Position numbers and translations under genes: made by a program
Shown here: in pieces, positions 24,180 through 52,282 of the stretch
How the letters are laid out: each line of letters begins with the position of its first letter
Position numbering within the stretch: the first letter of the stretch is position 1
The notes under the pieces: generated by a model
What the model saw: the letters and a program-made list of their open reading frames with translations, nothing else
The model's database searches: none
Told to the model about the DNA's origin: nothing
Source of the DNA: SAR202 cluster bacterium
GTDB lineage: Bacteria; Chloroflexota; Dehalococcoidia; Lucifugimonadales; UBA2985
Assembly (NCBI GenBank): GCA_009391535.1
Contig: VFHP01000024.1
Coordinates: 209,976-273,975, forward strand
Length of the DNA: 64,000 bases
Direction: 5' to 3'

Positions 24180-26654
24180 ATGACCATCACTAGGGGAAAA
24201 ACAGACGATAGAGACTCTCAAAGAGGCGATAAAAATTTGAATGATGTGCTATCTGCATTGAGTGCAGCAGGTATAACTGATCCAAATATGGCAAAAAAAA
24301 TAGCGGCATCACTCGATGGATCGAGATCTACTGCTGAATTGACTGGCCACAACATAATAGATACTGGGATATCAGATAACGCGATGGTCGTATTGAAAAA
24401 ACGATATTTTATGAAAGATAGTAAAGGCAATGCGGTGGAGAATTCCTGGAGTGATATATCCAGAAGAGTAGCCAGAGCTATTGCTGAAACAGAACTACTA
24501 TACAATCCCGAAGCAGATGTAAGTTATTGGGAAGAGAAATATTATAGTGTCATGGTAAGTTTGGAGTACGTACCAAATTCTCCTACCCTTATGAACGCTG
24601 GCACAGGTGCCGGAACCCTTTCTGCTTGTTTTGTGATGGGATTAGAAGACAGTATGGAAGGCATAATGGAAACCGCTAAAGAGGCCGCTTTGGTTCAAAA
24701 ATTCGGTGGAGGTACGGGGTTTGCCTTATCGAAAATAAGACCAAAAGGCTCTCCAATAACTACAACACATGGTAAGGCATGTGGTCCCATAGCTGTGTTA
24801 AAACATCTGTCTTCAGTGTCTACTTTGGTTACTCAAGGTGGTAAACGAGATGGGGCGAATATGGCGGTTATGGATGTTCATCATCCTGACATAGAAGAGT
24901 TTATTACTTGCAAAACACAAGAAGGACAGATACACAATTTTAATGTATCAGTTGGTGCCAGTGAAGTGTTTATGCAGGCTGTAAGCAAGGGTGAGGATTA
25001 CGAACTGAAGGATCCCCATAACGGGGAAGTCTTAGGGAGTCTGAACGCAGGAAAAATATTCGATAACATTATAGAGGGCGCTTGGCTTAATGGAGAACCA
25101 GGAACAATTTTCCTGGACCGTGTTAATCAGGATAATCCGACGCCTCATATAGGGGAAATGATCGCTACTAATCCATGTGGTGAGCAGCCTCTGCTTGCCT
25201 ATGAATCTTGCAATCTGGGTTCAATAAACCTTGCAAAATTTGTTTTATTCGATGAAGGCGAAACCAAAGTAGATTGGGATCGTTTGGCAGAGGTGACGAG
25301 TATTACAACGAGATTCTTAGACAACGTTATAGATGCTAACAGATACTCAGTACCGGCTATAGAAGAAATGACGAAAACTACACGTAAAACCGGACTTGGT
25401 GTAATGGGATTCGCTGATATGTTGGTGATGATGAATGTGGCTTATAACTCCCAAGAAGGATTGGATTTGGGCCGGGAAATTATGAGGTTTGTAAAGGAAC
25501 ATGCAGATGCGACAAGTGAGGATTTAGCCGAAGAACGAGGTGTGTTTCCTGGATACGAAGGTAGTATATATGAAAAACAGGGACGGCCTATGCGTAATGC
25601 ATGTAGGCTTACAGTTGCACCAACGGGTACTATATCCATGATAGCTGGTTGCTCGAGTGGCATAGAACCACTTTTTTCTCTCTGCTATCACAAACACAAC
25701 ATATTGGAGGGCGAAAGTTTACTTTACATAGACTCCAATTTTGAACGTATGGCAAGAGAACAAGGGTTTTATAGTGATGAACTGATGGAATACCTTGCTG
25801 ATGGTGGGTCTATACAAGATAGGGATGATGTTCCAAGCTCTATTAAAGATATTTTTGTTACAGCTGGTGATATATCACCCGAATATCATGTTAGGATGCA
25901 AGCTGTTTTTCAAGAGAGCGTAGATGCTGCTATATCTAAGACCATAAATTTCCCTAATTCAGCTACTAGAAATGATGTGAGAACAGCCTATATGTTGGCT
26001 TGGGAATTAGGATGCAAAGGTATAACTGTTTATAGATCGGGGAGTAGAAATCTTGAAGTTTTAACATCTGGTTCGGCCAAAACGGAATCTGCAGATTCCG
26101 TGTCCATTAACGCCGATGACTTGCAGAATACTATTCATGATAGTCAATTAAACAAACCAGCTCCAAGACCTGCTCAAGTGAGTGGGATCACAGAAAAAGT
26201 GAGAACTGGTCACGGCAATATGTATATCACTATAAACTCTAGGGAAGGTCAACCCTTTGAAATCTTTTCAAACTTAGGCAAAGCCGGAGGTTGTGATTCT
26301 GCTCAACATGAAGCCATATCACGACTGGTTTCTTTGGCTTTACGTTCTGGTATAGAACCAAGTGAGTTGGTTGAACAACTTCGTGGTATAACGTGTTGTC
26401 CTCAGTGGGATGACGGCAAATTGGTTCGTTCAGGACCAGATGCAGTCGCATTAGTTTTAGAAAAACATACTGGTAGCGATAATGGTGAGAACAATCTTGT
26501 GACCTATGCCTTACAACCAGGATTACCACTTAAACCAGATACTAATGGCAATGGAGTAATTGGTAAGGCAGCATGTCCAGACTGTGATGGGTTTTTGGTA
26601 TATCAAGAAGGTTGTGAAATGTGTCCATCTTGTGGATATTCTCGTTGCGGATAA
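24180..26654 (+). CDS. nrdJ: class II (adenosylcobalamin-dependent) ribonucleotide reductase
   Basis: 824 aa with an RNR catalytic core ([21 protein letters not shown]; TVAPTGTIS) and a C-terminal Cys-rich tail (CPDCDGF...[13 protein letters not shown]). It lies immediately downstream of nrdR. Confidence 0.9.
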
Positions 26655-26659
26655 GGCAC

Positions 26660-26830
26660 TGCGAGAGCGTGATTCGGGACTTAATTTGTGATGAACACAC
26701 CGATTCTCGGTGATACGTGTGAGATCGGTGTGATACGGGGTAGACGCTTGGCGTCTATGGATAAAACTAATCCGCGCTCTTGATAGAGGGAGCGTGCAAA
26801 TCGGGCGGCCTCTTTTTTGGGGCCGCCTAG
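26660..26830 (+). other. GC-rich multi-hairpin intergenic element (candidate structured RNA or complex 3' UTR/terminator)
   Basis: Four stem-loops are visible. (1) 26696-26732 is a 12-bp stem with one bulge. (2) 26741-26757 pairs tagacgc with gcgtcta. (3) 26773-26796 pairs cgcgctc with gagcgtg and includes a G-U pair that works only on the + strand. (4) 26804-26827 pairs ggcggcc with ggccgcc. The region is visibly more GC-rich than its flanks. Confidence 0.35.
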
Positions 26831-26876
26831 CATTGTAACACATTTTTTTATTATAATGGCTAGGTGGAGTCGTTAA

Positions 26877-27881
26877 ATGGATAATTTACCTATCATAGGC
26901 ATAACAATGGGAGATCCGGCAGGAATAGGGCCAGAAGTTATAGTAAAGGCATTAAATAAACGTTGGTTAACTGATTCTTTTCACCCGTTAATAATTGGAA
27001 ATCTACATTTGTTATCTAAGGCAGCCAAAGATTTAGGATGTGATCTAGAATTCTCAGAAATTTCTTCTGCGCAAGACGCTAGGGTGAACCGCATATCCGT
27101 CTTTGATATGGGTAATCTGAATCCTGAAAATGTTGAACATGGAAAAATTTCTGCCGATTGTGGTCGGGCAAGTGTGGAATGGATTTTAGAAGCAGGACGA
27201 ATGGCTCTAAATGGAGAAATAGATGCCATTGCTACTGCTCCCATACACAAAGAAGCTGCACAATTAGCCGGCTACAAAGATATAGGTCATATGGAGTTAC
27301 TGCAAAAACTTAGCGGGGCGAAGGAAGTTGCAACAATGTTGACAGCTGGTAACTTAAGAGTTGTACATCTTACGACCCACAGATCCCTTGCAAAAGCTGT
27401 TGAATTTGTAAGAAGGGAGAATGTTTTGGCAAAGATAGAACTTACGTACAATAGTTTTAGAGAATGGGGTTTTTCAGATCCCCGTATTGCAGTGGCTGCA
27501 CTCAATCCACATGGTGGTGATGGTGGTTTAATAGGTAGAGAAGAAATAGAGGAAATTTCACCAGCTGTTAATGATGCATTAAAACTAGGTATTAATGTCA
27601 CCGGGCCTATACCAGCAGACTCAGTATTTCCTCAGGCTATAAATGATAATTATGATGTCGTGGTTGTGCTATATCATGACCAAGGTCACATACCGATAAA
27701 AGTAAAAGATTTTGAGGGTAGCATAAGTATAAATCTAGGATTTCCATTTACTAGAACATCCGTGGATCATGGAACAGCATTCGACATAGCTGGAAAAGGT
27801 ATAGCAGATGCTACTGGTATGATCAAAACCCTAGAGGCTACTGCTTTCATTGCAAACACAGGTAATCTTCCATCTGAGTGA
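26877..27881 (+). CDS. pdxA: 4-hydroxythreonine-4-phosphate dehydrogenase
   Basis: 334 aa with the PdxA family pattern (GITMGDPAGIGPEV; ATAPIHKEA; AALNPHGG; YHDQGHIP; SVDHGTAFDIAG). Confidence 0.9.
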   Translation: MDNLPIIGITMGDPAGIGPEVIVKALNKRWLTDSFHPLIIGNLHLLSKAAKDLGCDLEFSEISSAQDARVNRISVFDMGNLNPENVEHGKISADCGRASVEWILEAGRMALNGEIDAIATAPIHKEAAQLAGYKDIGHMELLQKLSGAKEVATMLTAGNLRVVHLTTHRSLAKAVEFVRRENVLAKIELTYNSFREWGFSDPRIAVAALNPHGGDGGLIGREEIEEISPAVNDALKLGINVTGPIPADSVFPQAINDNYDVVVVLYHDQGHIPIKVKDFEGSISINLGFPFTRTSVDHGTAFDIAGKGIADATGMIKTLEATAFIANTGNLPSE

Positions 27882-52205: not shown

Positions 52206-52282
52206 TGGGGTGAGCGGAGGGATTTGAACCCTCGATCTCCAGGGCCACAACCTGGCGCCTTAACCACTAGGCCACGCCCACC
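52206..52282 (-). tRNA. tRNA-His (anticodon GTG)
   Basis: The minus-strand read is G-GTGGGCG-TGGCCTAGTGGTTAAGGCG-CCAGG-TTGTGGC-CCTGG-AGAT-CGAGGGTTCAAATCCCTC-CGCTCAC-C-CCA. It forms a cloverleaf with anticodon loop TTGTGGC, an encoded G-1 opposite C73 (a His identity element), and an encoded CCA. Confidence 0.9.

Follow-up and report, generated by a model that had tools for sequence, protein, structure and literature searches.

The nrdJ-pdxA spacer of a marine SAR202 cluster bacterium (Chloroflexota, Dehalococcoidia), contained in a 64-kb stretch of DNA hereafter called the window, encodes on its + strand a conserved structured RNA of 153 nucleotides (nt) with six helices, designated P0 to P5 (Table 1). 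The element was found in 17 distinct marine SAR202/Dehalococcoidia sequences, every time between nrdJ and pdxA, and each of the six helices has at least one covarying pair. A structured RNA at this site had been proposed in an initial annotation made from the window alone, and both the homologues and the covariation that such a proposal calls for were found. We read the element, with a probability of roughly 45%, as a lineage-restricted structured 3'-terminal domain of the nrdJ mRNA, or of a joint mRNA of nrdJ and a small open reading frame (ORF90) that follows it in most relatives; in such a domain P5 and P0 would form or protect the 3' end and P1 to P4 would bind a factor. SAR202 bacteria are uncultivated, abundant in the dark ocean and ecologically important.

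Fold of the element

The spacer is GC-rich, as had been noted, with a GC content of 0.49-0.52 in 100-nt intervals across 26650-26849 against 40.5% for the window overall. RNAfold of 26655-26850 on the + strand gave -73.5 kcal/mol (z = -4.06), and none of 200 shuffles was as good. The four stems initially drawn by eye were recovered in this fold; they correspond to P1 (26696-26732), P2 (26741-26757), P4 (about 26775-26794, annotated as 26773-26796) and P5 (26803-26828, annotated as 26804-26827). The small hairpin P3 and the closing helix P0, which completes the junction, had been missed, and the conserved element is slightly narrower than the annotated extent of 26655-26850. The stretch directly after the nrdJ stop codon is not part of it, because not even L086 and L199, the nearest relatives, share its sequence. 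Of two short repeats pointed out initially, GAGCGTG..TCGGG is present at 26666 and 26790, the first copy lying in this non-conserved stretch and thus outside the element, and GTGATACG is present at 26710 and 26730.

Table 1. Features of the nrdJ-pdxA region. Positions are those of the window unless a relative is named.
Feature	Position	Strand	Description
Whole element	26686-26838	+	Conserved structured RNA, 153 nt; P0 closes a junction with P1-P5; covariance model R1 matches over the full model, 122.8 bits
P0, 5' strand	26686-26693	+	UUGUGAUG; pairs with 26831-26838, all 8 positions, wobbles included
P1 hairpin	26696-26732	+	9 bp, bulged U, 3 bp, 12-nt loop; outer 7 bp CACACCG/CGGUGUG
J1/2 linker	26733-26740	+	AUACGGGG; length and sequence differ among relatives
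P2 hairpin	26741-26757	+	UAGACGC-UUG-GCGUCUA; stem of 7 bp, highly conserved in sequence; loop of 3 nt
P3 hairpin	26758-26774	+	UGGAU-AAAACUA-AUCCG; small; invariant GAU
P4 hairpin	26775-26794	+	CGCUCUU-GAUAGA-GGGAGCG; contains U·G pairs; invariant UGC follows
J4/5 linker	26795-26802	+	Invariant UGC, rest variable
P5 hairpin	26803-26828	+	Very stable GC hairpin (-21 kcal/mol); resembles a terminator, though the tail is poor in U in the window
P0, 3' strand	26831-26838	+	CAUUGUAA; pairs with 26686-26693
Probable pdxA -10 box	26852-26857	+	TATAAT, located after the element; shared by all element-bearing sequences compared apart from diverged L207
Non-conserved spacer	26655-26685	+	After the nrdJ stop, outside the element; differs in L086 and L199 (PdxA identity at least 97%)
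nrdJ	24180-26654	+	Class II, B12-dependent ribonucleotide reductase, 824 aa; Pfam Ribonuc_red_lgC, TSCPD
pdxA	26877-27881	+	Downstream gene, 334 aa; Pfam PdxA, E = 1e-95; identical to MQF99149.1
ORF90 (in relatives)	L088:2521-2793; L092:2371-2643; L093:2463-2735; L204:2521-2793; L205:2523-2795; L207:3501-3776; L215:3001-3279		Small ORF between nrdJ and the element

Homologues and covariation

Three routes led to diverged homologues, namely PdxA proteins 60-97% identical to that of the window, JGI metagenomes scanned with a DNA pattern (6 true among 110 matches) and homologues of the neighbouring small ORF; contigs with an identical PdxA were uninformative because their spacer is identical too. 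The 17 sequences comprise a window-like subgroup (the window, L086, L199 and L215/L216), a 'main' clade (L088, L113, L106, L166, L089, L091, L092, L093, L204 and L205) and a strongly diverged form (L207/L208). The L207 group, which did not belong to the seed, was recovered full-length by the covariance model (E ~1e-6). A pattern scan of IMG/VR viral contigs gave two matches, both of which were rejected, one for not passing the sequence check of P2/P0 and the second for being the contig of an already rejected metagenome match.

In the covariance-model alignment of the 17 sequences, 95.3% of the pair cells are canonical, compared with 82.5 +/- 0.8% in shuffled alignments and 29-52% in slid controls; in the hand-built structural alignment of 13 sequences the figure is 95.7%, compared with 86.4% after shuffling, and both paired figures are inflated in that the alignments were fitted to the structure, a bias that explains neither the double changes nor the recovery of L207. 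Compensatory changes occur in 26 of the 46 pairs of the former alignment and in 16 pairs of the latter, and for all five measures applied to the covariance-model alignment the result in shuffles was 0/500. By helix, the compensatory pairs among the 17 sequences are distributed as five in P0 (of 8), three each in P1, P2 and P4, one in P3 and eleven in P5 (of 12).

The helices differ in how they vary. P0 is 8 bp long in both the window clade and the main clade, where its strands are GURUAAUA and UAUUGUAC; depending on the clade, the helix is closed on the outside by G-C, U-A or A-U, and the innermost pair is A-U or G-C, both being double compensatory changes. The AUUGUA at the centre of its 3' strand is invariant in the 13 hand-aligned sequences and differs in the diverged L207/L208. 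In P1 all cells are paired (100%), three of the seven outer pairs switch between A-U and G-C or between C-G and U-A, and the inner extension is variable according to per-sequence folds. P2 (94% of cells paired) shows G·U variants on the + strand only, and P4 (96%) includes a change from G-C to A-U in L204. P3 is the weakest helix, with 89% of cells paired and one pair that flips between C-G, G-C and A-U. Most stem positions of P1, P2 and P4 are invariant in sequence, as are the GAU in P3, the GA in the P4 loop and the UGC after P4. P5, by comparison, drifts freely in sequence with full compensation, its loop is not conserved and its hairpin energies range from -17 to -26 kcal/mol across members; in this it behaves like a hairpin with a generic structural or terminator role. 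Neither the sequence nor the length of the junction strands J1/2 and J4/5 is constant. Conserved stems combined with variable junctions are unlike a typical small-molecule aptamer and look more like a surface that a protein recognises or that serves tertiary packing, and the sequence conservation of P1, P2 and P4 suggests that the element binds a factor. A pseudoknot between a GGG in J1/2 and a CCC in the P3 loop was considered and rejected, as no co-variation between the two was seen by eye across the sequences.

The minus strand of the region folds well too (z = -4.37). In the alignment of relatives, however, 53 G·U cells stand against 7 A·C cells, and the RNA is therefore on the + strand; an RNA on the minus strand is rejected by this asymmetry despite its good folding. 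The single + strand-specific G-U pair that had been noticed initially in one stem is thus one of many. A protein-coding function was likewise rejected, since no frame is preserved among the relatives: indels of 1 nt between the window and L086 (in the P5 loop) and between the window and L199 (in P1) break any frame, and there are many more in the other relatives. Because of these frame-breaking indels, the minus-strand ORFs at 26523-26843 (106 aa) and 26681-26833 (50 aa) and the 31-aa gene call L001:2812-2907 (+) are spurious, and recognition of the element corrects such gene calls within it.

Distribution

The element is restricted to one marine SAR202/Dehalococcoidia clade. It was not found in distant Dehalococcoidia (PdxA 49-56% identical) among the matches listed, where no covariance-model match was obtained either; a PdxA search of genome contigs listed relatives at up to 56% identity, and none of these carries the element. 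Such distant Dehalococcoidia often retain the adjacency of nrdJ and pdxA with a spacer that consists of a terminator and/or a promoter only. The element is therefore a clade-specific insertion. It occurs once in the 64-kb window and once per homologous locus, and searches with blastn-short, nhmmer and the covariance model gave no further copies in 1.5 Mb of sequence. As a single-copy element it does not qualify as a REP/MITE-like or mobile repeat, and this candidate was rejected.

Comparison with known RNA families

The initial annotation had recognised none of the motifs of cobalamin, SRP, 6S, purine or ZTP RNAs, and this impression held when the 4227 covariance models of Rfam 15 were run against the whole window at gathering score: there was no match on the element. 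At E<=10, positions 26500-27000 gave snoRNA noise only (9-15 bits), and at E<=1 the eight diverged homologous loci gave only BSnc120 (24 bits against a gathering score of 114). No match with E<0.1 fell on the element in a permissive cmscan of the window region and the eight diverged homologues, and the weak noise matches of these scans (snoU36a, sR28 and BSnc120) were all far under their gathering scores. Full-text literature searching gave neither a description of the element nor any structured or small regulatory RNA described for SAR202. We regard the element as a new RNA family. Conserved RNA structures at the 3' ends of bacterial mRNAs are a known general kind, to which the element belongs with a new fold and in an unusual setting.

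Two families of junction aptamers deserve separate mention. The lysine (RF00168) and cobalamin (RF00174) riboswitch aptamers resemble the element in being about 150-200 nt long, in having a closing helix from whose junction hairpins emerge and in showing strong covariation, and cobalamin is a natural suspect as NrdJ is B12-dependent. Neither of the two models, nor that of any other junction aptamer, matched the element. It also differs from them in its variable junctions and in its location, which is not a 5' untranslated region (UTR) but the interval that follows nrdJ and precedes the pdxA -10 box.

The raiA, IMES, HEARO and GOLLD RNAs are orphan structured RNA motifs that were found by comparative genomics and metagenomics. 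The element resembles them in being defined by conservation and covariation only and in coming from uncultivated marine bacteria. It differs in having no Rfam match to any of them and in being confined to one SAR202 subclade, with one copy per locus and strict synteny. The fold is well supported, with all six helices covarying, and is unusually elaborate for an orphan motif; its distribution is narrow.

A proposed structured 3' end of the nrdJ mRNA

Most relatives have a conserved, very basic ORF of 90-92 aa, ORF90, in the interval from nrdJ to the element, with a stop codon 1-4 nt before the P0 5' strand in all three subgroups. In the window, from whose clade ORF90 has been lost completely (none was found elsewhere in the 64 kb), the P0 5' strand begins 31 nt after the nrdJ stop; the window-like L215 retains ORF90. 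The spacers between nrdJ and ORF90 are 55-75 nt long and contain a conserved Shine-Dalgarno sequence, and no canonical terminator was seen in them. The exception in length is L093, with 175 nt from an upstream 91-aa ORF to ORF90. This additional ORF (L093:2015-2290), located between nrdJ and ORF90, has no Pfam match and an insignificant similarity to ORF90 (BLASTP E = 0.011).

A sigma-70 promoter of the element's own was sought just upstream and rejected. In the main clade P1 is preceded by a TATAAT-like stretch whose essential A2 is not constant; this stretch is the P0 5' strand itself, which pairs with the 3' strand and shows compensatory changes in the window clade. Since covariation supports P0, the RNA must start upstream of this helix, and as the few nucleotides from the ORF90 stop to P0 are too short for a promoter, the element is most simply the 3' part of an nrdJ-ORF90 transcript, or in the window of an nrdJ transcript. 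It thus has what is expected of a 3'-UTR domain, being on the same + strand as the upstream gene, after its stop codon and with no room for its own promoter, and nrdJ is probably the upstream gene whose transcript carries it. Three identities had been left open in the initial annotation, namely an unclassified small RNA, a 3' UTR element and a leader of pdxA. An unclassified structured RNA is now strongly supported and the 3' UTR fits best, and the leader is disfavoured by the -10 box that follows the element. The RNA may also exist as an independent small RNA, for example one processed from the 3' UTR.

We therefore favour, at the probability given above, a domain that would form the 3' terminus of the mRNA of nrdJ, or of nrdJ and ORF90 together, and would not be transcribed as a leader of pdxA. 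P5 together with the U-containing P0 3' strand would make or protect the transcript 3' end, which would separate the nrdJ transcript from the pdxA promoter directly downstream. The sequence-conserved P1, P2 and P4, with P3, would form a specific binding surface for a hypothetical trans-acting factor, a protein or a small ligand. On this factor would depend how stable the upstream mRNA is or how it is processed, or whether the domain is released as a stable RNA derived from the 3' UTR. A structured domain located at the 3' end and stabilising the RNA upstream of it has a precedent in the Vc2 riboswitch of Vibrio cholerae (10.1101/617340).

Several points weigh against this reading. The transcript ends and the co-transcription with nrdJ are deduced from spacing only. 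The tail of P5 in the window has 3 U in 10 nt, and the terminator scan of the window called no terminator-like site, in agreement with the initial remark that the last stem is not a textbook terminator. Across members there are 3-6 U in the 10 nt after P5 (3-4 in most); P5 passes the terminator scan in L092, and a U-tract as expected of a terminator follows it there and, in part, in L088. Termination 7-9 nt after P5 would leave the P0 3' strand incomplete, which fits poorly with a covarying P0. A pure stabiliser or terminator would leave the sequence invariance of P1, P2 and P4 unexplained, and the trans factor that might account for it is hypothetical. A ligand pocket, finally, is not evident in view of the variable J1/2 and J4/5.

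It is improbable, in our estimate, that the element is a new class of factor-responsive 3'-end RNA domain, either a '3' riboswitch' for a metabolite connected with DNA-precursor or B6 metabolism, or the RNA half of a new small ribonucleoprotein (RNP) with the ORF90 product. Such a domain would tune the lifetime of the nrdJ mRNA and possibly read-through into pdxA-proC-yggT in SAR202.

The relation of the element to ORF90

The ORF90 protein might itself bind the element, either autoregulating the 3' end of the operon or acting in trans as a small RNP, an alternative that we consider unlikely. ORF90 and the RNA share the same narrow distribution, the outgroups among the matches listed lacking both, and in three divergent subgroups the conserved, basic ORF directly adjoins the RNA. 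ORF90 is represented by ~50 protein clusters, whose named sources are without exception Dehalococcoidia or Chloroflexi bacteria. The protein has no match in Pfam, NCBIfam or PDB sequence searches, and an AF2 model with a pLDDT of 58.6 was of insufficient quality for a fold search. The only relationship detected, by an exhaustive hidden Markov model search, is a resemblance of the N-terminal 30 residues to a WXXGXW or 'VWVPGH..G.WIPGHWR' beta-hairpin repeat. Other proteins, with signal-peptide-like N-termini, contain several copies of this repeat, which is not a known RNA-binding fold.

An argument against this partnership comes from the relatives in which the ORF is gone. ORF90 has been lost independently at least three times with the RNA kept, in the window clade, in L091 and in L089. 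In L091 (2785-2805) a precise deletion runs from the ORF90 start codon to P1 and has removed the P0 5' strand as well, and in L089/L090 an internally deleted ORF90 remnant (L089:2667-2800) reads into the element. The conserved stems of the RNA are intact after these three losses, and the RNA is therefore under stronger constraint than ORF90.

The probable pdxA promoter and the downstream side

Among the matches listed, the outgroups without the element have a TATAAT or TGnTATAAT upstream of pdxA, and we take the TATAAT to be the ancestral pdxA promoter. Since this probable -10 box lies after the element and is present in the outgroups too, the element is unlikely to be a leader of pdxA. TTGTAM and TATAAT are 17 nt apart in the main clade (18 in L093) and 13 nt apart in the window clade and L215 (window 26833-26857; L215 3428-3460). 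The P0 3' strand (TTGTAC) may double as a weak pdxA -35 box in the main clade. As a -35 box it is plausible there and impossible at the 13-nt spacing of the window clade and L215, and the promoter scanner was silent on it. In the window clade and L215 the invariance of TTGTAC is thus better explained by the RNA, and the window clade is left without a recognisable -35 box for the pdxA promoter. The promoter scanner did not call the TATAAT of the window, which has no good -35 box, and a T7 tract precedes the -10 box in the window clade.

These observations bear on an intercistronic, riboswitch-like cis-regulator, in which an aptamer for a metabolite such as a B6 vitamer or a nucleotide would control read-through into, or translation of, pdxA-proC-yggT. 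The architecture of the element, with a closing helix, a multi-helix junction, a length of about 150 nt and strong covariation (six helices, 26/46 pairs compensatory), is aptamer-like; the element is always directly upstream of pdxA and P5 is terminator-like in some members. Beyond the aptamer, a riboswitch is generally expected to lie in the 5' UTR of the gene it regulates and to have a conserved expression platform. Neither was observed here, and the probable -10 box TATAAT, which separates pdxA from the element, has counterparts in outgroups without the element. With RNAalifold no covarying hairpin, no pairing that would sequester the Shine-Dalgarno sequence and no expression platform were detected from the P0 3' strand to the pdxA ATG, and a window-specific pairing with the Shine-Dalgarno sequence (26823-26831 with 26859-26867) was rejected since it is not conserved, being broken in L199 and absent in L215. 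Variable junctions combined with invariant stems are also the opposite of what typical aptamers show. We place this alternative slightly below the ORF90 partnership.

The P0 3' strand (C/UAUUGUA; 26831-26838) can alternatively pair over 7-8 bp with a UAUAAUG at 26851-26858, and the homologous pairing is available in all relatives. This alternative helix and P0 are mutually exclusive, which would make a two-state switch conceivable and counts in favour of a cis-regulator; against this, the helix is invariant and its energy is about 0 kcal/mol. Because both partners are invariant it is untestable by covariation, and it may simply follow from the near-complementarity of ATTGTA to TATAAT.

Two further alternatives have very little to recommend them. 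DNA-level operator palindromes for transcription factors at the pdxA promoter would agree with P2 (TAGACGC-N3-GCGTCTA) and P4, which are near-perfect, sequence-conserved palindromes 60-110 bp upstream of the -10 box, but are most improbable given a G·U to A·C ratio expected of RNA and not of DNA half-sites, loop lengths that vary, P5 and P0 strands that change sequence wholly yet keep pairing, and six nested or adjacent helices with a long-range closing helix. That the element is a diverged member of a described family missed by the covariance models is equally hard to credit after the permissive scans and literature searching described above, although lineage-specific variants can score under Rfam thresholds and weak noise matches were all that was seen.

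Comparison with known structured RNA 3' ends

A close parallel to the favoured 3'-terminal domain is the Vc2 cyclic di-GMP riboswitch, which likewise forms a compact multi-helix domain at the 3' end of upstream transcripts (V. cholerae small RNAs) just before the next gene, without a canonical terminator and with a proposed role in protection from degradation (10.1101/617340). Vc2 differs in that its aptamer class (GEMM-I) and its ligand are established and in serving also as the 5' leader of tfoY. The fold of the SAR202 element is new, and pdxA appears to have its own promoter after it.

Intrinsic terminators share with the element a stable GC hairpin that drifts with full compensation and is followed by a U-containing tail, as in P5, which passes a simple terminator scan in L092. 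They differ from it in that most members have few U residues behind P5, the tail is at the same time a strand of P0, and four more conserved hairpins precede.

The 3'-UTR-derived small RNAs of enterobacteria, such as CpxQ, SroC and DapZ, are short, simply structured and Hfq-dependent and act through a single-stranded seed. The element resembles them as a candidate regulatory RNA in an mRNA 3' end that would end at a terminator hairpin and might be released by processing. It differs from them in being a closed six-helix junction of 153 nt with conserved stems and no evident seed.

The site is unusual, at the 3' end of a B12-dependent ribonucleotide reductase gene and abutting the promoter of a vitamin B6 gene. 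Regulation from a structured 3' end is known in few cases; should a ligand or protein bind to this fold, there would be one more, and the 153-nt element would be an experimentally tractable target. Even if it is only a stabiliser or terminator, it would still be a useful annotation marker for the clade.

Neighbouring genes and minor observations

The gene order on the + strand is a CCA/poly(A) polymerase-like gene, nrdR, nrdJ, the 222-nt spacer, pdxA, proC, yggT and hisS. The contig of the window also recurs among Tara Oceans assemblies. The sole Rfam match at gathering level in the 64 kb is a tRNA at 52209-52281 on the minus strand (68.8 bits).

A palindromic element of the form CCCGCTCAT...GAGCCTGTCGAA...GAGCGGG was observed at L088:2465-2499 and in the pdxA 5' region of L092 (~2860-2920), with a similar one in the nrdJ-ORF90 spacer of L166. 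This recurring intergenic palindrome is probably a REP/MITE-like repeat of the lineage, and in L092 it extends the pdxA 5' region to about 200 nt.

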